A stretch of 64,000 nucleotides of DNA from an uncultured Lentisphaeria bacterium (GCA_951812855.1 OX638337.1:960108-1024107); one strand, 5' to 3'. Positions 1 through 59,415 are shown, numbered from the stretch's first letter. A program made the numbers and translations. Notes: generated from the sequence alone by a model not told the origin.

Positions 1-179
1 AACTGATCAATAAACTCAAAGCAGGCGATAAAGTAGTGACGAGCGGCGGAATTCATGGTGCTATCACTGCAGTAAAAGATGAAACTGTTCTACTGAAAGT
101 AGCTGACAATGTAAAAATTGAAGTCAATCGACTTAATGTACTCGATACTATATCAGGAGAGAAAAAGGAAACTGGTTAA
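1..179 (+). CDS. yajC: Preprotein translocase subunit YajC, C-terminal portion (gene begins upstream of window)
   Basis: Open frame from position 3 to TAA at 177-179 translating ...KAGDKVVTSGGIHGAITAVKDETVLLKVADNVKIEVNRLNVLDTIS..., typical YajC C-terminus; immediately precedes secDF as in conserved yajC-secD-secF arrangement. Confidence 0.55.
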   Translation, partial: LINKLKAGDKVVTSGGIHGAITAVKDETVLLKVADNVKIEVNRLNVLDTISGEKKETG

Positions 180-181
180 TT

Positions 182-2737
182 ATGAAAAACTCTGTACCTG
201 GAAGACTGTTTGTAATTTTTATTATACTGCTGGGATGGTGGTATTCGTTATATCCAATTAACGATCGCCCTTTTTATGATGTTCTTCGGGAAGAAATTAA
301 CCGGGACACAGACGTCAACGAAATTGAAAATATCATTAAAAAGGCACAGGAAATTGAAAAAATCAAGGCTGCAGAAGGTTTAGCGATGAGTCCGGCGAAA
401 GCTGTAAAATTAGCTGCGTCAGATTTAAAAGTAAATCTTCGTGATTTTATCAGCATCTACAACCAGCCAAAGGCATCAAATGATGTTGTAATAAATTTTG
501 TTCGCCGTAAAGCCGCAGGAAAAATTCGACTGGGATTAGATCTTAAAGGTGGAACCGAATTTATTATTGCGTTTGATGAAGAGGAATTTAAGAAAAATGA
601 ACCTGAAAAGGAAATTACCGAAGCTCAGCAAGAAATTATTGAAATATTACGAAACCGTGTTGATCAGAGTGGAATAGTCGAAGCCGAAATAAAACCAATT
701 GGGCCATCCACAATATCCTTGAAAATTCCAAGTATTGATACTGATGATATCCAAAAGAACAGAGAGCTGATTCAAAGAACAGCAAAATTGGATTTTAGAC
801 TCGTGCATGAAGACAGTGCAACATTAGTGAGTAACGAAAAAAACGAAGACTTTGTTCCTCCCGCTGCCTATGAACGTATGGAAATGGCAAACTCGTCAGA
901 CGCAGAGACACCAACGCAGATTTTGTATATTAAACGAATTCCTGAAAGCGTTGGAGGCAAGCATATTCTCCGTGCTTTTCCGAATGTAAACCAATTTGGA
1001 AGTTACTCCGTCAGTCTGGAATTTAATACTGAAGGTGCCAGGCTGTTTCATGATGTCACCAGTGCAAATACCGGCCGAAGATTGGCTGTTGTTCTGGATG
1101 GCACGGTATATAGTGCACCGAATATCAACGAACCGATTGCCGGCGGACGTGCAGAAATTTCAGGCAGTTTCAGCTCAGAAGAAGCGACAGATTTAGGTGT
1201 CGTTTTAAGATGCGGTAATTTACCCGTTGATATTAGTATCGAAGGTGAATTCAGTACGGATCCAACATTGGGAAGGGATTCCGTAGAAAGCGGCAAAAAC
1301 GCTTCGATTTGTGGATTGGTCGCTGTAATAATATTTATGGTTATTTATTATCGGACCGCAGGGATTGTTGCAACTATTGCACTGACTGCAAATATACTGC
1401 TTGTACTGGGGACTCTGACAATTGCCGGTGCAACCATAACGCTGCCGGGAATCGCAGGTATTGTCCTGACAATTGGTATGGCTGTTGATGCAAATGTTCT
1501 CATATTTGAACGGATTCGGGAAGAATTGGATAATAAAAAATCGACTCCAAATGCAATACATACTGGCTATAATCGTGCGTTTATCACAATTCTTGATGCA
1601 AACTTAACCACGTTATTCACCGCATTGATACTCTATAAATTCGGATCCGGTCCTATCCGGGGGTTTGCAGTTACATTAAGCATTGGTATACTCGCGAGTT
1701 TATTTACATCCTTATTTATGACACGGGCAATTTTTGATCTGTTTATATGGATGGATAAACTAAAAAATCTAAATCTTTCCCCATGGTTCACGGTCAAGAA
1801 TGTAAAGTTTTTGAATTTCAGAAAACTCACATCACTTGCGTCTGTTATACTGATTGTTATTTTAGCGGCACTAATGACAGGTCGCGGCAAATCGGCTCTC
1901 AGTGTAGATTTTACCGGGGGATCAGCAATAACATTTAATTATAGTAACGAAATCTCGCCTTCCAAAATTAAAGAAGTTTTGAATAAAAATGACTACAAAG
2001 ATACACGGGTTGCTTATAAGGCATCTGCTCAGCAGGAAACCCGACTATTAGAAATCGTTTTAGGTGGAGTTGTCCAAAAGGATAAAGACGTAAAAACCGA
2101 TATCCGTGATTTACTGAATAAAGACTTCCCGGCTGCAGAACTTTCAGGGGGCTCAGAAAAACGAATTGGTGCACTGGTTGGCAATCAATTTATGAAGCAG
2201 GCAATTTATGCTGCCATATGGGCTTTAGTAACAATTATTATGTATATTACCATTCGATTTGAATTCAGTTATGCTTTGGGTGCTGTTGCTGCATTGGCCC
2301 ATGATGTTGTTATCTGTACCGGTCTATTCCTCATTGCAAATCTCGGCGAACGCCAAATTTCATTACCCGTCATTGCAGCATTGTTAACGATTATGGGATA
2401 TTCACTTAATGATACTATTGTTGTGTTTGATCGTATACGAGAGAATTTTGGTCTTGTTAAAAACATGTCTGTTAAAGAACTCGTCAACCTCAGTCTCAAT
2501 CAAACATTCAGTCGTACTGTTCTTACGTCATTTACCACGTTGCTCGTGATTATTATTCTATATGTATTTGGCGGTGGTGCGATTAATGATTTTGCATTGG
2601 TTATGCTTATTGGTGTTATAATTGGTACTTATTCATCGATTTTTATCGCGACGCCTGTTATGATGTTTTTTCGTGATAGAAAAGAAAAAGGAAGTGCTGT
2701 GACATCGACAGCAAATTTAAAAAAATCAACAGCATAA
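182..2737 (+). CDS. secDF: Fused SecD-SecF protein-export membrane protein
   Basis: 851-aa ORF; periplasmic SecD-like region followed by two multi-TM export domains (…GLDLKGGTEF…, …IAGIVLTIGMAVDANVLIFERIRE…, …MLIGVIIGTYSSIFIATPV…); follows yajC. Confidence 0.9.
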   Translation: MKNSVPGRLFVIFIILLGWWYSLYPINDRPFYDVLREEINRDTDVNEIENIIKKAQEIEKIKAAEGLAMSPAKAVKLAASDLKVNLRDFISIYNQPKASNDVVINFVRRKAAGKIRLGLDLKGGTEFIIAFDEEEFKKNEPEKEITEAQQEIIEILRNRVDQSGIVEAEIKPIGPSTISLKIPSIDTDDIQKNRELIQRTAKLDFRLVHEDSATLVSNEKNEDFVPPAAYERMEMANSSDAETPTQILYIKRIPESVGGKHILRAFPNVNQFGSYSVSLEFNTEGARLFHDVTSANTGRRLAVVLDGTVYSAPNINEPIAGGRAEISGSFSSEEATDLGVVLRCGNLPVDISIEGEFSTDPTLGRDSVESGKNASICGLVAVIIFMVIYYRTAGIVATIALTANILLVLGTLTIAGATITLPGIAGIVLTIGMAVDANVLIFERIREELDNKKSTPNAIHTGYNRAFITILDANLTTLFTALILYKFGSGPIRGFAVTLSIGILASLFTSLFMTRAIFDLFIWMDKLKNLNLSPWFTVKNVKFLNFRKLTSLASVILIVILAALMTGRGKSALSVDFTGGSAITFNYSNEISPSKIKEVLNKNDYKDTRVAYKASAQQETRLLEIVLGGVVQKDKDVKTDIRDLLNKDFPAAELSGGSEKRIGALVGNQFMKQAIYAAIWALVTIIMYITIRFEFSYALGAVAALAHDVVICTGLFLIANLGERQISLPVIAALLTIMGYSLNDTIVVFDRIRENFGLVKNMSVKELVNLSLNQTFSRTVLTSFTTLLVIIILYVFGGGAINDFALVMLIGVIIGTYSSIFIATPVMMFFRDRKEKGSAVTSTANLKKSTA

Positions 2738-28697: not shown

Positions 28698-30908
28698 ATG
28701 GATATTACACATTTACGTTTGGGAACTTTAGTCATCTCTGTATTTGTCGGGGTATGGCTTTTTATTGTTTCACACTATATCCGAATTCCTGCAATTGTTC
28801 TTTTACTGATTGGAGGCGTAATACTGGGGCCGGAGGGGTTGGCCATAATCGACCCTGAATCTCTTGGACAGAGTCTTCGGTTAATCATATCTCTGTGTGT
28901 TGCCATTATACTTTTTGAAGGAGGTTTATCCTTAAAGCCCGAGGGATTTAAGAAGGCACCAAGAGTTATTTGGAAGCTTTTAACAATCGGTGTCGGAATC
29001 ACCTGGCTTGGAACTGCTGCGTTAATTCATTTTCTTCTGAATTTTCCTATACCAGTCTCATTATTATGCGGCAGTCTGGTTATTGTTACGGGTCCAACAG
29101 TTATCGCGCCATTGCTTAATCGAATCAGTGTTAAGGATAAATTATATCACATCTTGCATTGGGAAGGTGTTTTAATTGATCCAATTGGTGTTTTTATTGC
29201 AATTTTGTGTTTCGAATGGTTAAGCATTGAGGGAAGTTTTATAACGCATATTGGACATTTAAGCTATCGCTTGTTAGTTGGCATTGTGATAGGTATCATT
29301 GGCGGTCTAATTTTAACGTTTTTACTGGTTAAAAAAATAATACCGGAACAACAAGTGAATATTTTGGTATTTGCCACAGCGTTATTTTTATTTGGTATCT
29401 CTGAATCAGTTGTTCACGAGGCCGGTATTCTTACCGTGGTTATAGCAGGACTTGTTATGGGCTGGACGTCTCCTCCGCAGCTTAAACATATCAAAAAATT
29501 TAAATCTGAGTTAACCGAAATTTCGATTGCACTGGTTTTCATACTTCTTGCCGCCAATCTTGAACTGCATCAATTTTCAAAATTCGGCTGGAGAGTTGTA
29601 TTGGTTATTTGTGGTGTGCTGTTTATTATTCGTCCACTTAGCATCATGCTGTGTACAAAAGGCTCTCAACTTAGGATGAATGAAAAATTGTTTCTGTCCT
29701 GGATTGCCCCAAGGGGGGTTGTCGCAGGGTCGATGGCGTCCCTCTTCGGGTTAAGGTTATCAATGCAAGGTCATCCAAACGCAATATTTTTGGAAACATT
29801 TACATTCAGTATCATCGCAACTACAATTGTTTTTCAAGGATTAACTGCTGGTATTGTGGCACACTGGTTAAAGGTTGAAGAACCCGAAAAGAAGGGATGG
29901 CTTATCATCGGTGCTCACCTTTTCTCAAGAAAAATTGCGTCGTTCATCATGGAAACGACCAATGGCGTATGTATTTTGATTGATACCAATGAAGATGCGG
30001 TCAGAGAGGCACAAAATGAGGGATTTATCGTGATCCAGGGCAATGCGTTGTCGACGGATATTCTTCCTCTTGATCAGATGTCTTCAATCGGCAATCTCCT
30101 CGCACTGACTGATAACCGGGATTTAAACCAGTTGATTTGCGAGAAATGGTCAGAGATGATTGACCGTAATCATTTATACAGGTGGTCGTCACGATCCATT
30201 CAGGATGAAAACGAAATTGGTGGAATGGGAAAGCCGTTATGGCCGATGATCCCAAAACCCTCTCAACTGTCATATGATTTAAAAAACATGAATGTCAATT
30301 GTCGGCAATTAAATGAAAACGAATCGTTTGTAAAGTCATCCGGAAATGAGAGGATGATAACCTTTACTGACAGCACACTTCATTTTTCAGACAGTGTTCC
30401 TGAAGGAGTTGAAGCACCTGATGTTTTTGTGTTGGAACGACTGTCGCTGAATTTACTTGGATTAATTAAACGTAATCAAATCTTTTTTCTTGACTATGAC
30501 GATTATGAAGAATTGTTAAATGTAATACTTAATGAAATTGAACAGATTTATCCGGATATTGTTAATGATGCACTCAAATCAAGTTTGGTGCATCGCGAAG
30601 TCAAATTTCCCTCAATACTGGCAAATAGAATTGCAGTACCGCACACCCGATCTTCCTCATTAAATGAGTCAATTTGTGTAGTTGTACAGTTAAAACAGGA
30701 GATAAATTTACCGCCGCCTAACGCCGGGACTGTCAGACTGTTATTTCTATTATTGACACCCGAAGATAAACCGGAACAACATTTAAGACTTCTTGCAGAA
30801 ATTGCCAAAATTGCATCGTCCCCGGACTTGGTTGATTCACTTATAAATGTGAATTCGATTGATGATTTAATACAAAATTTTAAGGGTATTAATGCAAAAA
30901 TCGAGTGA
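28698..30908 (+). CDS. NhaP/CPA1-type cation:proton antiporter with central RCK-like and C-terminal PTS EIIA (type 2, PtsN-like) domains
   Basis: 736-aa ORF; ~12 TM segments in first 400 aa, Rossmann-like middle region (…WLIIGAHLFSRKIASFIMETTNGVCILIDTNEDAV…), C-terminal EIIA-2 domain with AVPH active-site motif (…ILANRIAVPHTRSSSL…LLFLLLTPED…). Confidence 0.8.
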   Translation: MDITHLRLGTLVISVFVGVWLFIVSHYIRIPAIVLLLIGGVILGPEGLAIIDPESLGQSLRLIISLCVAIILFEGGLSLKPEGFKKAPRVIWKLLTIGVGITWLGTAALIHFLLNFPIPVSLLCGSLVIVTGPTVIAPLLNRISVKDKLYHILHWEGVLIDPIGVFIAILCFEWLSIEGSFITHIGHLSYRLLVGIVIGIIGGLILTFLLVKKIIPEQQVNILVFATALFLFGISESVVHEAGILTVVIAGLVMGWTSPPQLKHIKKFKSELTEISIALVFILLAANLELHQFSKFGWRVVLVICGVLFIIRPLSIMLCTKGSQLRMNEKLFLSWIAPRGVVAGSMASLFGLRLSMQGHPNAIFLETFTFSIIATTIVFQGLTAGIVAHWLKVEEPEKKGWLIIGAHLFSRKIASFIMETTNGVCILIDTNEDAVREAQNEGFIVIQGNALSTDILPLDQMSSIGNLLALTDNRDLNQLICEKWSEMIDRNHLYRWSSRSIQDENEIGGMGKPLWPMIPKPSQLSYDLKNMNVNCRQLNENESFVKSSGNERMITFTDSTLHFSDSVPEGVEAPDVFVLERLSLNLLGLIKRNQIFFLDYDDYEELLNVILNEIEQIYPDIVNDALKSSLVHREVKFPSILANRIAVPHTRSSSLNESICVVVQLKQEINLPPPNAGTVRLLFLLLTPEDKPEQHLRLLAEIAKIASSPDLVDSLINVNSIDDLIQNFKGINAKIE

Positions 30909-36690: not shown

Positions 36691-37449
36691 TTGAATCTGA
36701 ATCGTATGAAAAATTGGTACAAAGACGCCTTTACTGAAGATTATATTCATATTTATCAACACCGCAACCAAACAGAAGCGACAATTCTAATCGACCGGTT
36801 ATTGAAATTTTTGAATTTACCAGGCGATTCATTGTGTTTAGATTTATGCTGTGGATTTGGTCGTCATTTATCATATTTATTAGATCAGGGGATAAATACA
36901 TATGGATTAGATTTATCACAGCCACTACTGGAAAATGCGGTTGAAATAAGGCAATTATCCGGTCGTGTCATTCTTGGAGATATGAGACACATTCCCTTTA
37001 GTAAGTCATTTGATTTTGTTTTCTCCTTTTTCTCCAGTTTTGGTTATTTTCACAGGGATTCAGAAAATATACAAGTTTTACAGGAGATTAATCGAGTGTT
37101 AAAACCAAAGGGAAGATTCTTAATCGATTATCTTAATGCTGAGCATGTTAAAGATAATTTGAGAGAACATGACCTTCGTTGCTATGATAATTTTACTGTA
37201 AAGCAGAAGCGCTGGATAAATTCAGATTTAAATACGGTAGAAAAAGAGTTAATCATTGAAGATGTCAAGGGTGAACGATCTTATTTTGAGAGTGTTAAAC
37301 TCTATGATCTGGTAGATTTCAGGCAACTTTGTTCAGCCTCGAATTTGAAAATCACCCATGAATTTGGAGATGCCATTGGAAAACCGTTTGACATCGGATC
37401 AAGTCGTTTGATCATGGTGGGGGGAAAAATTGACAGTCACCTTTCATAA
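36691..37449 (+). CDS. Class I SAM-dependent methyltransferase (translationally coupled to bshC)
   Basis: 252-aa ORF; SAM-binding motif …LDLCCGFGRHLSYLL…GLDLS…; stop overlaps bshC start by 20 nt. Confidence 0.75.
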   Translation: MNLNRMKNWYKDAFTEDYIHIYQHRNQTEATILIDRLLKFLNLPGDSLCLDLCCGFGRHLSYLLDQGINTYGLDLSQPLLENAVEIRQLSGRVILGDMRHIPFSKSFDFVFSFFSSFGYFHRDSENIQVLQEINRVLKPKGRFLIDYLNAEHVKDNLREHDLRCYDNFTVKQKRWINSDLNTVEKELIIEDVKGERSYFESVKLYDLVDFRQLCSASNLKITHEFGDAIGKPFDIGSSRLIMVGGKIDSHLS

Positions 37450-38995
37450 TTTCAATTTGGTAGATGATAACCTTTATAATGCCAAAATAACGTCCGCTTT
37501 TCTGGAAACAGATCCTTATTCATCAGATTCATTGTCCAGGAATCATCAATACGCGTCATCACGGTCTGACATCGACCGCGAATTTTTGTCGGAGACTTTT
37601 TCTGAATATAATAATGTCATCGGTAATGACTCCACGGCACTTTATAATTGCAGTCGAATAAGAAATGCAGGTTCAATGGCAGTGGTTACAGGCCAGCAGG
37701 CCGGGATGCTGACCGGTCCATTATACACGATATATAAGATTATTACGGCTGTTAATTTTGCAAAGCATTGTGAACATAAGTTTAAGACACCTGTCATCCC
37801 GGTTTTTTGGAACGCAACCGAAGATCATGATTTAAGTGAAGTCGAATCATTTCATTATCCTGGCAAGAAGTGGTCTGCCACTTTTTCACAAAACGGAGTT
37901 GCAGCACAATTTTTAAACGTAAATCCGGCATGTTCGAATCTTGTTTACAATTTCCTGGATTCAATCTCAGAAATAAATCATAAAGATGAAATTACATCTA
38001 TACTGACAAATGAGTTTGAAAAATACGGAGAATTTTCATCGTCAGTGACAGCCCGGTTATTTAAGGGGACGGGTCTGGTCATTATTGAACCAAAATTATT
38101 GCGTAAAAAGTCAACTCCATTTTTTCAAAAGTGCATCAGCCATTGTCATGATATCAGAAATGGATTGGAGCAGGCCGGTGTTCTCTTACAGCAAAATAAA
38201 ATTAAGCCTGCATTTCAGGTGTCCGGGGATTCAACAGGACTTTTTTATATAACAGATGACGGGATTCGATATCAAATAAAAAATAGGAAAAATGACTTTT
38301 TTATTAATAACAAATGGGTTTCGGAATCTTCAGCGTTACAACTTATTGCCGAGTCTTCTTCAAATTTTTCTACCGGTGCATACCTGAGACCCGTTTTGCA
38401 GTCAAAAATTATTCCTGCTCTGGCATATATAGCAGGTCCAGCGGAATATAGGTATCATTTACAACTGAAAAATATATTTCACATGTTTGATGTTAAAATG
38501 CCTGTAATTCTACCCAGAAATCATGCAACCATTTTGACAAAAAAAGAATTGAAAGTTGCGAATAAACTGGGTTTGAAAATTCATGATTATTTTGAAGGTC
38601 CTCAAAAATTTTATCATCAGCACAAGTTATATAAAAAAGGAAGAGACAGTTTTAAGAATGCTGAACAGGCCTTGATAGACATCGCTGAGAATTTGGCTCA
38701 GGACATACCGGATTTAGTCAATGAGAATGTATTAAATCAGTTTAAATCAAACTTGGGTATTCAATTAGACAAACTTGAAAAACGCGTTGCGAAAGAAGTC
38801 TTGAGACGCGAGGGAATTGACAATGCCAGAATTGATCGGTTTTATAATTGTATTTTCCCGAAAAAATCTATGCAGGAACGATGGATTAATATCTTTTATT
38901 TTATTGAACAAAATGGTTTATCCATTATCAGTGATTTGTTGAAAATTATCGATCCTTTAGAACGGCGACATTATGTTGTTTATACAGACCATTAG
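37430..38995 (+). CDS. bshC: Bacillithiol biosynthesis cysteine-adding enzyme BshC
   Basis: 521-aa ORF; conserved BshC block …AVVTGQQAGMLTGPLYTIYKIITAVNFAK…PVIPVFWNATEDHDL… and …AYIAGPAEYRY…; followed by bshB and bshA. Confidence 0.8.
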   Translation: MTVTFHNFNLVDDNLYNAKITSAFLETDPYSSDSLSRNHQYASSRSDIDREFLSETFSEYNNVIGNDSTALYNCSRIRNAGSMAVVTGQQAGMLTGPLYTIYKIITAVNFAKHCEHKFKTPVIPVFWNATEDHDLSEVESFHYPGKKWSATFSQNGVAAQFLNVNPACSNLVYNFLDSISEINHKDEITSILTNEFEKYGEFSSSVTARLFKGTGLVIIEPKLLRKKSTPFFQKCISHCHDIRNGLEQAGVLLQQNKIKPAFQVSGDSTGLFYITDDGIRYQIKNRKNDFFINNKWVSESSALQLIAESSSNFSTGAYLRPVLQSKIIPALAYIAGPAEYRYHLQLKNIFHMFDVKMPVILPRNHATILTKKELKVANKLGLKIHDYFEGPQKFYHQHKLYKKGRDSFKNAEQALIDIAENLAQDIPDLVNENVLNQFKSNLGIQLDKLEKRVAKEVLRREGIDNARIDRFYNCIFPKKSMQERWINIFYFIEQNGLSIISDLLKIIDPLERRHYVVYTDH

Positions 38996-53966: not shown

Positions 53967-54380
53967 TCACTTCAAACTTAAAGAATAATCACCCTTCCTT
54001 TTTTCCCATACAAATTTAGGATCGATAACAGGATCATAATTTCCCGGTGCAGAAGAAATAAAAAACGCAGTATCATAAACGCCTGCACCTGTGCGTGCTG
54101 CGACCATAACAAGCCCATTAAAAAGTCCAACAGTGGGTGTTGCCAGGAGTCCATCGTTTTTAAACGTTAACCAAAGCTGCCTGGGTAATTCTATCCAACC
54201 CGTTGCAATGTTAACGATACCTCGAAAGAATTTTTTATTCATTGGATCAAAAACTGATTCAAATGGAATCCCGTCAAAATTTTTAGATGGAGAGTCTGTC
54301 TCCTGTGCTCTTAGATGTGAAACATTTACCAGCGACAAAATAATAACGAAAATATACAAAGTACTTAGATAATTTTTCAT
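53967..54380 (-). CDS. Small secreted protein with signal peptide (possibly exosortase-system-associated family; tentative)
   Basis: 137-aa ORF; N-terminal signal peptide (…IFVIILSLVNVSHLRAQ); motif …RGIVNIATGWIELPRQ…AARTGAGVYD… recalled as typical of a small exosortase-associated protein family; not verified. Confidence 0.45.
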   Translation of the reverse strand: MKNYLSTLYIFVIILSLVNVSHLRAQETDSPSKNFDGIPFESVFDPMNKKFFRGIVNIATGWIELPRQLWLTFKNDGLLATPTVGLFNGLVMVAARTGAGVYDTAFFISSAPGNYDPVIDPKFVWEKRKGDYSLSLK

Positions 54381-54681
54381 GCGTTTATTCCTGTCGGTAA
54401 TTACGTTTTGGATTTAGATATAGAACTGTTTAGTGGCTGTCATAAATATTATCATCAATTAAATGATTGCAAATCACTTTGACATAGATGCCCTGCTTCT
54501 TCAATGAGAGACAATCCTGTTTTATATAAATTCATCCATAAAATGATCAATTTTAGTGTTTTTTACACTTCACTAAATTCAATTAAGCATACGGTGTCCC
54601 AGGTGAATTATTCGCAGGTAAAATTTATACGTGAACAGGGGTTCTGGAAGTTTGAGCAGGAAGTTGCCGGTACAGGAATTA

Positions 54682-54822
54682 ATATTTTTTCTCTTCCTTG
54701 AATTCAACTTCACTCTGTTGTATGCCAAAGTGTTTGCAAGTGTATTGAATAAATTCCTGTTCATCTGAATTTAACTCACCGTCAATCATAGATACTTCAA
54801 TAATGTTTACCAATTTGTTTTG
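54682..54822 (-). pseudogene. TerB-like domain fragment (paralog-like remnant of the N-terminus of the 44371..45726 ATPase)
   Basis: Stop-to-stop minus-strand frame QNKLVNIIEVSMIDGELNSDEQEFIQYTCKHFGIQQSEVEFKEEKKY; the …MIDGELNSDEQEFI… block parallels …VLIDGDLNVDERAFI… in the TerB-AAA protein; only ~45 codons. Confidence 0.3.
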
Positions 54823-55165
54823 TTACGAAAATTATTTAGGATAGAAACGGGAATGTCCATGGTTGTTTATATTCCGGATGTCGTTTTTGTTTTCTTTATA
54901 AATTTATAAAGTTTGTACAAGTAAGCCGTCGTTCTGTTTATTTTATTTTCATTTGACTTACCTTAATTTAATAGAGATAAATGGGTAATAAGAATAATTT
55001 GAAATCTTTACAAGAATTAGCAGAGTACTTAATATTAATTTTCTTAAAATCTATTCGACAGCTCATGATTTCGTATGAGAGCTGACGGTGTTGAACACGA
55101 TTAATGACTGAATACTCCATGACATATTTGGGCATGTATTTTTATTTACACAGCAGCTTTTTTAC

Positions 55166-55912
55166 TTGATTGATCTGACTGCAGAAATTTTAACCTTAAA
55201 GGAAACTCAAATGTATTGTGTCAGTGACTGGTATTTATCTTTAGGGCTTTATACATTTCCAACTCTATTTATTCAGTTGAATAATGATGAGATTGAATTA
55301 ATCAGAAATGTTGAAGATTGTTCTAATTCTTCCAGAAATATTATCAGAAAAATTGACAGTGCCGTAACCAGTTTCCCCGGAAGCAGTTTTATACATGTAG
55401 ACTATTGTGCCCCAACCGATTCTTCGTTATTTCAGAAGGGAAAAGGAGCGATTAATTCTGGTAAAACCGGCTGGAATATCCTGTCTCAAAGTGAAAAAGT
55501 AAAAAAGGCATTCGCCGAAGATAAAACAAAAAGGATTTGTGTTCATCCGTACAGAAGAATAGATCATGCCCGCGAATTCAGAGTTTTCACTAAAGCAGGT
55601 ACGGTTGTGGGAGTGTCTCAAAAAGATGTCGCTAAACATCATCCTAAACTTCATAAACGTCGGGACTTTATCCAAAGGAAAATTTACAAGTTTATGAAAC
55701 ATATCAATAGTCAATTGGAAACCGAAGACATCATTGTAGACGTTTATCTTACTTCTCAGGATGAATTAATGATTCTGGATACCCACTCATGGGGCGGGGC
55801 AACAAATCCGTTATTATTTCGCGACTGGGATCGTGACTGGAGTAAAAATTCTGGATTAGTTTTAGTTGAAAAACCCGAAAAGTTAGGGGGGAACGTCTCT
55901 GTTTCGTTTTAG
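55166..55912 (+). CDS. Cdc123/D123-family ATP-grasp protein (eukaryote-type)
   Basis: 248-aa ORF; three blocks closely parallel eukaryotic CDC123 as recalled: …GSSFIHVDYCAPTDSS… (cf. SVFPKLNWSAPRDA), …REFRVFTKAGTVVGVSQKD… (cf. AEFRCFVKENKLIGISQRD), …IIVDVYLTSQDELMILDTHSWGGATNPLLFRDWD… (cf. FVFDIYRDSRGKVWLIDFNPFGEVTDSLLFTWEE). Confidence 0.7.
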   Translation: MIDLTAEILTLKETQMYCVSDWYLSLGLYTFPTLFIQLNNDEIELIRNVEDCSNSSRNIIRKIDSAVTSFPGSSFIHVDYCAPTDSSLFQKGKGAINSGKTGWNILSQSEKVKKAFAEDKTKRICVHPYRRIDHAREFRVFTKAGTVVGVSQKDVAKHHPKLHKRRDFIQRKIYKFMKHINSQLETEDIIVDVYLTSQDELMILDTHSWGGATNPLLFRDWDRDWSKNSGLVLVEKPEKLGGNVSVSF

Positions 55913-55950: not shown

Positions 55951-57138
55951 TTATTCAAGACTGGTGTTGTGGGAGAAGCAGATTCGTGAAATACATTCAT
56001 TAAAGTTTTCATGCCCACTTAAAATATCGATTTCTACACGCATATGGACAATTTGTAAATCTCTTCTATCCATCATTGGAAATCGAACAGAATCCTTTTC
56101 AGTTGTGACTATAAGGTCAGCATTACGTTTCAATGCAGCATTAATAAAATTAATGATTTCTTGCTGTGTATATCGATGATGGTCGGCAAATCGTTCCTTA
56201 TAAACGAGGTCGCCGCCAAAACTGGAAAGAAATTTTTCAAAGCCTGCCGGAGCTGCAATGCCTGAAATAGATGCGATTTTCTTTCCATTTAAATAGTCCG
56301 GATCAAATTTCTGTTTTGAGTATATGTCTTCCAGATATTGAGGCTTATGGGTACATTCAATAATTTCCGCACGGTGATTATGCTTTTTCAGGAAACGCTT
56401 GAAGTGATGCAGGTGTTTTCCGCCTGAAGATTTGGTCAGGAATATATAATCGGCTCTTTGAATATTTTTAATTGGTTCTCTGAGTAATCCTCTGGGGAGT
56501 AAATGGTGATTATCAAAAGGGTTAGTCGAATCGATTAACAAGATGTTCAATTTGGGTTTTAAAGGGAGGTATTGAAAACCATCATCAAGTATCAGAGTAT
56601 CTGAATTGAATTCATTTATAGCATAACGTCCACTTTTGACACGATCTTTATCAACCAATATAACAACATCTTTTAAATTGGTTGCCAACATATACGGTTC
56701 ATCACCGGCCATTTCTGAATTTAACAATAAACTCTTTCCATCAGATACAATTCTCGGGGGAATATCCTGGTTGCGTTTGAAGATGAAGTCCGCAATTTTT
56801 TCGAAAAATGGTTTTCCTTTATTTCGGTAGCCCCGGCTAAGAATTGCAACTTTTCTTCCTTTCGCTGCAAGCGTTTTTGAAAAAACTTCGACAACGGGTG
56901 TTTTTCCGGTTCCACCGACGGTAAGATTTCCTATGCTGACAACCAGACAGCCGAGAGTATGGTCGCGAAAAATACGATCTCGGTATATAGTCAGACGAAG
57001 CTGTACTAAAGAGCGAAACATTCTGGACAACACAAAAAGCAATGATTTGGCACAGATATCAACTGGAGAATGCCGTTTTTCCTTGATAATATCAGTTACA
57101 TAGGTTTCGGCCTTCTCGATTATGATTTGGAAATTCAT
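55951..57138 (-). CDS. lpxK: Tetraacyldisaccharide 4'-kinase
   Basis: 395-aa ORF; P-loop …VSIGNLTVGGTGKTPVV… and …AILSRGYRNKG… characteristic of LpxK. Confidence 0.9.
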   Translation of the reverse strand: MNFQIIIEKAETYVTDIIKEKRHSPVDICAKSLLFVLSRMFRSLVQLRLTIYRDRIFRDHTLGCLVVSIGNLTVGGTGKTPVVEVFSKTLAAKGRKVAILSRGYRNKGKPFFEKIADFIFKRNQDIPPRIVSDGKSLLLNSEMAGDEPYMLATNLKDVVILVDKDRVKSGRYAINEFNSDTLILDDGFQYLPLKPKLNILLIDSTNPFDNHHLLPRGLLREPIKNIQRADYIFLTKSSGGKHLHHFKRFLKKHNHRAEIIECTHKPQYLEDIYSKQKFDPDYLNGKKIASISGIAAPAGFEKFLSSFGGDLVYKERFADHHRYTQQEIINFINAALKRNADLIVTTEKDSVRFPMMDRRDLQIVHMRVEIDILSGHENFNECISRICFSHNTSLE

Positions 57139-57696: not shown

Positions 57697-59415
57697 CTAA
57701 ATCGTGGAAACAGGGAACTGATCCGTCAAGGATTTTACCTGGTCACGGACCTGTGTAAATATTGATTCATCATCAATATTTTTTACAACCTTATATATCC
57801 AATCTGCAATTAATTTCATTTCAGGTTCTTTCATACCCCGTGTCGTTACTGCTGGAGTACCTATTCTTAGTCCACTTGTCATAAACGGTTTTTCAGGATC
57901 AAACGGAATTAAATTCTTATTCACGGTAATTCCGGCTTTATCCAGGGCTGATGCCGCGATTTTCCCTGTTGTATTTAAAGGACGTAAATCGACCAGCATC
58001 AAATGATTGTCTGTTCCTCCAGATACAATACGGAACCCATGTTTGGATAATTCCTCAGCCATAACCTTTGCATTTTTTACAATTTGCATCTGATAATGTC
58101 TAAATTCATCGGTCAGAGCTTCTTTAAAACAAATTGCTTTTGCTGCGATGACATGCATTAACGGACCTCCTTGAATTCCCGGGAAAATTTGAGAATTTAT
58201 TTTCTTCAAATATTGCTCTCTGCAAAGGATGAAACCTCCTCTGGGGCCACGTAATGTCTTGTGTGTGGTAGATGTGACGACATCGGCATAGGGTACCGGG
58301 CCGGGGTGAATCCCTGCCGCCACCAGGCCGGCAAAATGTGCCATATCGACCATAAAAAGAGCATTTACTTTGTCCGCAATTTCTTTCAATCTCGGGAAAT
58401 TAATAATTCTGGGATATGCACTCGCACCGGCAAGGATCATCCTGGGCCTATTTTCTAATGCCAATGATTCGATGTTGTCATAATCTAAGTGTTCCGTTTC
58501 TTTATTAACTCCATAGCCAATAAAATCATAATATCTGCCGCTGAAATTAATCTTATGTCCATGTGTAAGATGTCCTCCGTGTGCAAGATCCATTGCAAGG
58601 ACCTTATCTCCAGGATCAAGTAAGGCAAAATAAACCGCCATATTTGCCTGGCTGCCAGAATGGGGTTGGACATTTGCACATTCTGCACCAAAGATTTTTT
58701 TTACGCGTTCAATTGCTGTATGTTCAACGTCATCGACGAAATCACATCCATCATAATAGCGCTTGCCTGGATACCCTTCTGCATACTTATTTGTCAGACT
58801 TGATCCCTGTGCAGCCCGGACTGCGGGAGAAACGATATTTTCAGAAGCGATAAGTTCTAATATTTCACTCTGCCTCCGGGTTTCCTTTTTTATATATCCC
58901 GCTATTTCAGGATCAACATCTTCAATTGCAGTTATATTATTATTCGGGCCTGTTTCAATTTTGTTAATGCGTCGTTTATGCCTGGCTTCGTTACTGAATG
59001 GGGTGTTTAACCACAATTCAATTAAGTCCAGTATTTCTTTGTCGGATTTGTTGCTGCTTCCAATAACAAGCACATTTGAATTATTATGTTCCCTGCTCAT
59101 TGCTGCAGACAGCTCTGATGTGACAAGTGCAGCCCGGACGTATCGATATCGATTTGCATTTATACACATACCGATACCTGATTTACAAATCAGTATACCA
59201 CAATCAGCCTTGCCAGTCGATATTTTAGCAGCGAGTATATTTGCGTAATCTGGATAATCATCTTTTTCATCGAAATCTGATGGACCTACATCTTCTACAT
59301 TCAACTTTTTGTCGTTAAAGTGTGCATATATTCTATTTTTTAACTCCCAGCCCCCATGGTCTGATCCAATAAGTATTTTGCATGGGGTTTTGGTAAAGTC
59401 GATTATGTCTCTCAT
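57697..59415 (-). CDS. glyA: Fusion protein: RpiB/LacAB-family sugar-phosphate isomerase domain + serine hydroxymethyltransferase
   Basis: 572-aa ORF; residues ~10-150 are RpiB-like (…[14 protein letters not shown]…[17 protein letters not shown]…NVLVIGS…); remainder is full SHMT (…[36 protein letters not shown]…, PLP-lysine region …[16 protein letters not shown]…); no internal start codon at the junction. Confidence 0.85.

Follow-up and report, generated by a model that had tools for sequence, protein, structure and literature searches.

A minimal Cdc123-type ATP-grasp protein of Lentisphaerota without the two R2K basic residues

The DNA analysed here, a 64,000-nt stretch from an uncultured Lentisphaeria bacterium (GCA_951812855.1 OX638337.1:960108-1024107; hereafter the window), carries a gene of the Cdc123/D123 family (hereafter D123) at 55211..55912 on the plus strand. 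Its product is a minimal Cdc123-type ATP-grasp protein, comprising domains 1-2 without the inserts or the C-terminal extension of the eukaryotic proteins. The best explanation of our data is that D123 is an old, vertically inherited, single-locus core gene of Lentisphaerota, neither acquired from a eukaryote nor encoding an effector. We favour, at a probability of roughly 0.6, a cytoplasmic, Mg-nucleotide-dependent housekeeping factor that acts on a protein, with lower confidence that the step concerned lies in translation or nascent-chain handling.

The protein matches Pfam family D123 (PF07065) with 79.3 bits (E 3.6e-22; gathering score 24), and the same family is found on all 27 database homologues. 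A profile of 26 homologues retrieves human CDC123 (8phd) with an E value of 7.9e-21 and S. pombe Cdc123 with one of ~3e-12. An AlphaFold2 model built on the family alignment reaches a mean pLDDT (predicted local distance difference test) score of 90.5 and a predicted template modelling (pTM) score of 0.84. When searched with Foldseek, this model places all Cdc123 chains at the top (E ~1e-13, template modelling (TM) score 0.74-0.79), followed by Ddl, RimK and PurK-type ATP-grasp enzymes (E ~1e-5), and the protein aligns with the C-terminally truncated 4zgo. An earlier reading of the nucleotide sequence alone (hereafter the sequence-only reading) had assigned the gene to Cdc123/D123, and hence to the ATP-grasp fold, from three motif blocks; both the profile matches and the predicted fold bear this out. 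The blocks align with human CDC123 as claimed, far beyond chance: CAPTD with human SAPRD, EFRVFTKAGTVVGVSQKD with human EFRCFVKENKLIGISQRD, and IIVDVYL, MILDTHSW and LLFRDW with human FVFDIYR, WLIDFNPF and LLFT-W, respectively. An NCBIfam scan of the protein gave no match.

The same reading had described a product of 248 amino acids (aa). An open reading frame (ORF) of that length, counted from a TTG codon, is present at 55166..55912 on the plus strand, but its start was misplaced: the functional start is ATG 55211, 45 nt 3′ of the TTG, and the product has 233 aa. We place the start there because all homologue N-termini read M/V-x-x-[VI]-S-x-W-Y at the position equivalent to this ATG, because database protein P0001 (233 aa) is identical to the product from ATG 55211, because the ENA gene call on the source contig (ERZ18545485 ptg000035c, 1.94 Mb) begins at the same codon, and because a Shine-Dalgarno sequence, AAGGA, lies 7 nt 5′ of it. 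The closest relatives use a GTG start at the equivalent codon. The homologue N-termini and the Shine-Dalgarno sequence rule out the 248-aa ORF as the true product. The two parts of this ORF are:

55211..55912, plus strand: D123-family coding sequence, 233-aa Cdc123/D123-family ATP-grasp protein, stop codon counted in
55166..55210, plus strand: in-frame TTG extension of 45 nt, outside the gene, containing the Shine-Dalgarno AAGGA (55199-55203)

D123 is convergent with a minus-strand lpxK-ndk-rpiB/glyA-LMWPc block, and this arrangement is kept at D123 identities of 76%, 76%, 54% and 51%. Against relative L055, D123 is 76% identical, compared with 93% for LpxK, 81% for Ndk, 84% for GlyA and 69% for LMWPc; against the more distant L006, the corresponding values are 51%, 71%, 56%, 66% and 37%. 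In both comparisons, the divergence of D123 falls inside the range of its neighbours. L006 is a Lentisphaeria metagenome-assembled genome; the window organism is placed by its similarity to and shared gene order with L006, and by the distribution given below. The ratio of nonsynonymous to synonymous substitution rates (dN/dS) is 0.09-0.10, and the base composition is native when set against 40 other genes of the window, with a GC content of 0.375 (z -0.4) and a third-position GC content (GC3) of 0.333 (z 0.05). The D123 gene tree groups sequences by taxon and gene context. No match to D123 was found on phages, PADLOC and PHROG scans of the protein were likewise without a match, and a plasmid search returned a single remote match at 25.7% identity. 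We conclude in favour of vertical inheritance because of the conserved synteny, the neighbour-range divergence, the dN/dS, the native composition, the gene tree and the lack of phage matches.

The distribution of the gene points in the same direction. We scanned GTDB, taking one genome for each species, for one peptide pattern of the family and obtained 49 loci matching it. Of these, 44 carry a Lentisphaerota label (Lentisphaeria, Lentisphaerales, Victivallales and similar); every cultured lineage that was seen is among them, with Victivallis vadensis DSM 14823 and Lentisphaera araneosa, as is the complete genome CP071032. Of the other five, two bear the label Verrucomicrobiota, one Kiritimatiellota, one 'uncultured bacterium' and one Paceibacterota, the last probably a binning error. 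GTDB treats Lentisphaeria as a class within Verrucomicrobiota, and one of the two loci labelled Verrucomicrobiota has a Lentisphaera-type N-terminus. An intact ORF of 231-248 aa is present at every scanned locus; together with the dN/dS, these ORFs rule out a recent pseudogene or an unexpressed reading frame.

Among 1.84 billion cluster representatives, an exhaustive HMMER search found 2751 D123-like proteins at E <=1e-3, only 22 of which reach E 1e-30, and the scores step from 187 bits (P0040) down to 108 bits (P0050). Because of this sharp fall, we regard the subfamily as small and tight. It is monophyletic in a neighbour-joining (NJ) tree with a bootstrap of 0.94, obtained with capped distances. 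P0119 is a chimeric fragment. Profile-profile scores of the family are 283 with the classical eukaryotic DxN type and 312 with the ExN type, whereas these two types score 392 with each other, making the subfamily the outlier of three D123 branches. The label 'eukaryote-type', given to the gene by the sequence-only reading, is therefore not appropriate for what is a separate bacterial clade. A special kinship with eukaryotic CDC123, as its closest bacterial relative, had been considered on the basis of the shared DxN, D-x-Y and APxD, and the profile-profile scores rule it out.

Nor do the data agree with the further suggestion that D123 is a sporadic, horizontally acquired accessory gene, given that 44 of the 49 loci are in Lentisphaerota, synteny persists down to 51% identity, dN/dS is ~0.1 and GC and GC3 are native. 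A host-directed or conflict-related role, which that reading had raised along with a check for secretion signals, fares no better. The D123 protein has neither a signal peptide nor a transmembrane segment (maximum KD19 hydrophobicity 1.05), and its N-terminus is part of the fold in the AlphaFold2 model; we take the protein to be cytoplasmic because it lacks a hydrophobic segment and its N-terminus lies within the fold. It has no Legionella-type N- or C-terminal extension and no disordered C-terminal secretion signal, all 233 aa forming the ATP-grasp core, and no VgrG, Hcp, PAAR, SUKH or type IV secretion system (T4SS) gene was found in the window or in ~55 related loci. The rest of the window is ordinary chromosome, with secDF, addA/recD-type helicases, aspS, ilvC, menD, pgm, kdsA/B/C and lptC/D, and an Rfam search across it detected no RNA family.

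Residue conservation was counted over 72 subfamily sequences, and compared with 110 non-family D123 representatives; human residues from the literature were mapped through the alignment to 8phd_A, in which a 20-residue tag offset gives an exact numbering match. For the human protein, the strand-2 lysine K104, the acidic D233 of strand 4, D246xN248 in the last strand and the ExR motif have been defined (PMC4431377), R111 is known to contact the beta and gamma phosphates, and roles of A109 and R111 have been described (PMC12860950). The corresponding elements of the window protein, together with two that are conserved within the subfamily, are:

55406..55420, plus strand: C66-A-P-T69-D70 loop, equivalent in the alignments to human S108-A109-P-R111-D112
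55547..55558, plus strand: P113-Y-R115-R116 hinge motif, subfamily-specific (R115 in 71/72, R116 in 63/72)
55574..55582, plus strand: E122-F-R124, the ExR motif within the kinase-like domain's first strand (72/72), aligned to human EFR
55739..55786, plus strand: D177 (human D233) and D190-T-H192 (human D246-x-N248), metal-ligand positions from the 8phd alignment
55895..55909, plus strand: conserved, free C-terminus V-S-V-S-F (G227 in 72/72, V231 in 69/72, S232 in 70/72, F233 in 68/72)

Neither of the two basic residues of the R2K clade (RAGNYA domain with two lysines) is present in the window protein: H62 (55394-55396) stands in place of human K104, and T69, in the loop that follows strand 2, in place of the ATP-contacting R111. 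Across the 72 sequences, position 62 is occupied by H (20 sequences), G (19), S (16) or F (9), also by N or Y, and never by K or R, and position 69 is T in 64 of the 72 and K or R in none; among the cluster representatives, the deep member P0040 has K at position 62, and one family member, P0036, has K at position 69. All 110 non-family representatives have K or R at the first R2K position, and most also at the second, with an hhalign alignment giving the same register.

The rest of the nucleotide site is largely kept. D177 is found in 72/72 sequences, D190 in 71/72 and N192 in 65/72, three sequences having H at the last of these. At this position, which corresponds to human N248, His is what both the window protein and the two relatives nearest to it show (D-T-H). 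E122, R124 and Q137 (the glutamine of human SQ) are each 72/72, and we count these residues and the metal ligands in favour of retained nucleotide chemistry. The ExR motif agrees with membership of the ATP-grasp peptide-ligase assemblage of Burroughs 2015. Conservation of the ATP-binding residues, which the sequence-only reading had put forward for checking, is thus divided: the ExR motif, D177 and D190 are kept, and the equivalents of K104 and R111 are lost. Alongside, the subfamily has basic residues of its own. The hinge motif takes the form P-[YF]-R-R-M, the positions of R115 and R116 are unconserved among the 110 other D123 representatives, and R121 is a further subfamily basic residue (70/72). 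From these patterns, the phosphate-binding role may have moved from the two R2K residues to hinge arginines R115/R116, and possibly R121. P0040, a divergent deep member, has both the strand-2 Lys and the hinge Arg-Arg.

These substitutions could also be read as the mark of a pseudo-enzyme, which would have lost both phosphate-binding basic residues, would make no use of adenosine triphosphate (ATP) and would do no more than bind a conserved partner or provide a scaffold for it. The occupancy of position 62 by H/G/S/F/N/Y and of position 69 by T, when 110/110 other D123 proteins have K or R at the first and most at the second, agrees with such a loss, as does the His at residue 192 in the window protein. 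We nevertheless consider it unlikely. Conservation of D177 (72/72), D190 (71/72), N192 (65/72) and R124 (72/72) is unexpected in a protein free of catalysis or nucleotide binding, invariant arginines (R115, R116 and R121) are new beside the site, and the coexistence of old Lys and new Arg-Arg in P0040 is the order expected for compensation. Metal ligands as strictly conserved as these speak against a dead enzyme.

We return to an active housekeeping factor. In this proposal, the D123 protein would still bind Mg-nucleotide, with R115/R116 and possibly R121 functionally replacing the phosphate-contacting lysine/arginine residues of other CDC123/R2K proteins, and through binding or hydrolysis of the nucleotide it would work on a protein that belongs to the cell's core machinery. 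The mode of action might be that of an assembly chaperone, as in eukaryotic Cdc123, or of a peptide-type ligase. Eukaryotic CDC123 binds domain III of eIF2-gamma and promotes the assembly of eIF2 alpha with gamma. To our knowledge, bacteria have no eIF2, and the target should therefore differ from that of eukaryotic CDC123. All family loci share a nearly invariant free C-terminus of the form P-x-x-[LM]-x-G-[DEN]-V-x-V-S-F (55880..55909 in the window), for which the model has a pLDDT of 55-70; this tail could be a docking tail or a self-substrate.

The likeliest field of action would be translation or nascent-chain handling, because in other lineages D123 is probably co-transcribed with ffh (map-ffh-D123) or has def upstream. 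At 22 Victivallales-type loci, the order is OEP-(gltX)-def-DUF1189-like membrane protein-D123, with a gap before D123 of -8 to +30 nt in many. The order map-ffh-D123 is found at five Lentisphaerales loci, two of which have a gap of 2-3 nt and three one of 111-151 nt. The deep-branching lineage of P0040 shows a 4-nt overlap of ffh with D123, followed by rseP; at locus L060 (4526..8221, plus strand), P0040 (224 aa) lies in ffh-D123-rseP with stop and start codons overlapping on both sides. The nascent chain leaving the ribosome is the common substrate of Def, Map and Ffh, whose recurrence in two arrangements is suggestive of a translation-linked role, as a lead only. Across the window and ~55 loci, the neighbours seen are lpxK, ndk, glyA, rlmB-like, def, gltX, map, ffh, AMP-binding ligase and DAHP synthase genes; the contexts are all housekeeping, and no neighbour is common to the whole phylum. 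The narrower proposal, in which this bacterial CDC123 would have a housekeeping task at the co-translational machinery (ffh, map, def), performed through a nucleotide site rebuilt around the hinge Arg-Arg, is, taken as a whole, rather unlikely.

Several points weigh against the housekeeping factor as we describe it. Both ATP-contacting R2K basic residues are absent from all core members, and since they are lost, nucleotide binding is something we infer; in the window's clade, moreover, the metal-ligand Asn has become His. The window D123 is monocistronic and sits beside lipopolysaccharide (LPS) and one-carbon (C1) metabolism genes, gene order is unconserved across the phylum, and the ffh/def/map association may reflect phylogenetic inertia within two orders. 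Finally, the 49 loci are matches to one peptide pattern and do not give the share of Lentisphaerota genomes that carry the gene.

The gene context bears equally on the idea of a small-molecule ligase, whose product would be a metabolite, a lipid or a precursor of the cell envelope joined by an amide or ester bond. An AMP-binding ligase gene lies downstream of D123 at 7 loci and a DAHP synthase gene at 8, and the partner of such an enzyme might be either of these or the nearby LPS genes of the window. This idea is distinctly unlikely: no neighbour is conserved phylum-wide, lpxK is convergent and hence not co-transcribed, the only relatives to have been characterised act on proteins, and the 233 aa align full-length with Cdc123 domains 1-2, leaving none of the extra substrate-binding domains that metabolite ligases have.

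The surroundings of D123 in the window comprise:

54381..55210, no strand: AT-rich intergenic spacer upstream of D123, GC content 0.313
54726..54866, minus strand: relic of a TerB-domain gene, recognised by blastn and tblastx to L057 1465-2271 (minus strand) and by its translations
55951..57138, minus strand: lpxK, convergent neighbour (context only), first gene of the conserved lpxK-ndk-rpiB/glyA-LMWPc block

The sequence-only reading had described D123 as convergent with lpxK, which we confirm, the stop side of lpxK lying at 55951, and as preceded by a 785-bp AT-rich spacer with a decayed gene fragment. The spacer is indeed AT-rich (GC content 0.313 against a gene mean of 0.385); its length of 785 bp holds for the TTG and becomes 830 bp up to ATG 55211. 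The decayed fragment is real as well. It consists of 17 N-terminal codons that translate to MDIPVSILNNFRNKTNW, a stop, and ~36 C-terminal codons in another frame, and the two parts match separated portions of an intact gene in L057 at 78-79% nucleotide identity, from which the relic differs by an internal deletion of ~570 bp and in-frame stops. The intact gene (L057 1465-2271, minus strand) encodes a 268-aa TerB-domain protein (Pfam TerB E 1.3e-7). What does not follow is the use made of spacer and fragment as signs of an acquired gene: the relic-bearing AT-rich spacer records turnover beside D123, at a variable spot upstream, and not the acquisition of D123. Scanned for promoters and terminators, neither the spacer nor the gap between the convergent genes did better than shuffles, promoter-like hexamers in the spacer being no commoner than in these, and we propose no regulatory element.

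In L057, a close relative, the TerB gene upstream of D123 is adjoined by a homologue of DruA (Druantia) and by a DNA-binding fragment of a transposase (104..1367, minus strand). The upstream stretch appears to be a variable site, or one resembling a defence island, whose contents are gone from the window genome. On its far side, between an SpoU/RlmB-like methyltransferase gene and the spacer, the window has a 137-aa ORF (53967..54380, minus strand) that no Pfam family matches and whose N-terminus (MKNYLSTLYIFVIILSLVNVSHLRAQE...) resembles a signal peptide.

Elsewhere among bacteria, a D123 protein of the K-type, P0062 (255 aa; L061/L062 6001..6768, plus strand), is encoded among small hypothetical, mobile-element-like genes; it was seen on 17 contigs, and its neighbours include a resolvase, RecX and an ISL3 zinc ribbon. 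Burroughs et al. describe contexts of this kind. A horizontally acquired, eukaryote-type conflict gene, whether for a secreted effector against a eukaryotic host or for part of a toxin or defence system, is highly improbable in the present case: the company of P0062, the variable upstream region (TerB relic here, DruA and transposase fragment in L057) and the occurrence of other bacterial CDC123 homologues in polymorphic-toxin loci of type VI secretion systems (T6SS) or as putative Legionella T4SS effectors (PMC4431377) speak for it, but the gene is wide in Lentisphaerota with synteny, low dN/dS and native composition, its product lacks a signal peptide, terminal extensions and a disordered C-terminus, the secretion and immunity genes named above are missing from ~55 loci, the PADLOC, PHROG, phage and plasmid searches left one remote plasmid match, and the subfamily diverges more than any other D123 branch and does not nest within the eukaryotic proteins.

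Three further loci of the window are of separate interest. At 57697..59415 on the minus strand lies the gene for a 572-aa protein in which ribose-5-phosphate isomerase B (LacAB_rpiB, residues 13-152) is fused to serine hydroxymethyltransferase (SHMT, residues 163-539); the fusion is kept in relatives L006, L055 and L057. A protein of 736 aa in which TrkA_N and PTS EIIA_2 domains accompany the membrane domain of a Na+/H+ exchanger is encoded at 28698..30908 on the plus strand, and a BshC-like protein (bacillithiol biosynthesis; E 2e-77) at 37430..38995 on the plus strand, in what is an apparent Lentisphaerota genome.

Bacterial Cdc123 homologues, a Lentisphaera member included, have been known since 2015. 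Burroughs, Zhang & Aravind 2015 showed such homologues, named lentisphaerae as one of the taxa and took gi 494490064, from L. araneosa, as a search seed; their text calls the strand-2 lysine absolutely conserved, and the bacterial members that it discusses are only the T6SS-linked and Legionella-type ones (PMC4431377). The supplement contains exactly one member of the subfamily, in which the G/T substitutions and the RPYRRMD motif are present (PMC4431377). Our literature search found no paper on Lentisphaerota D123 proteins later than Burroughs 2015. The additions made here are the phylum-wide vertical conservation, the housekeeping context and an active site without the R2K lysines.

CDC123 is essential in eukaryotes, and there is still debate about its chemistry. 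ATP is bound and hydrolysed by the human and rat proteins, which act as chaperones in eIF2 assembly (PMC12860950, PMC8844851). The ATPase activity was first reported in 2025, and ligase activity is a prediction only. Toxins and effectors are the only roles in which the bacterial homologues have been discussed until now. The branch described here differs in being a conserved cytoplasmic core gene with a remodelled active site and operon links to ffh, map and def, which modestly widens the picture of CDC123-like roles in bacteria and names tractable organisms. For genome annotation, a D123 match in Lentisphaerota should not be taken for evidence of horizontal transfer from eukaryotes or of host interaction. 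If the co-translational reading were true, a pre-eukaryotic, translation-linked role of CDC123 would be preserved or paralleled in this branch, and Victivallis and Lentisphaera would offer culturable systems for CDC123 chemistry, be it that of a chaperone ATPase or of a peptide ligase, the latter possibly acting on its own invariant C-terminal Phe.

Among known proteins, the nearest is L. araneosa gi 494490064 (locus L035 here), an orthologue of the same subfamily with the motifs VVGLDSCMPTDS, RPYRRMD and GGDIKVSF; its missing lysines, phylum-wide conservation and gene context were not discussed by Burroughs 2015 (PMC4431377). Compared with eukaryotic CDC123 (PF07065; R2K.1; 4ZGN-4ZGQ, 8PHD), which has ~336 aa and is 17-19% identical in structure-based alignments, the 233-aa protein lacks the low-complexity inserts, the C-terminal extension, K104 and R111, and is set apart by an RR hinge motif of its own, by WDRDW and by the conserved C-terminus ...VSF. 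ATP-grasp peptide ligases of the RimK, LysX-ArgX and Ddl type share no significant sequence match with it, and the D123 protein has no canonical linker lysine, no strand-2 lysine and no glycine-rich loop. The T6SS/Legionella-type (PMC4431377) and ExN-type D123 proteins (for example P0052, P0062 and P0068 from Brevibacillus) have the Pfam family and the ATP-grasp core in common with the subfamily, the latter aligning with the ExN type in hhalign at 100% probability over 224 columns. Unlike it, they have K or R at both R2K positions and ExN in place of DxN, and they occur sporadically in conflict or mobile contexts, whereas the subfamily described here is a lineage core gene in housekeeping contexts.
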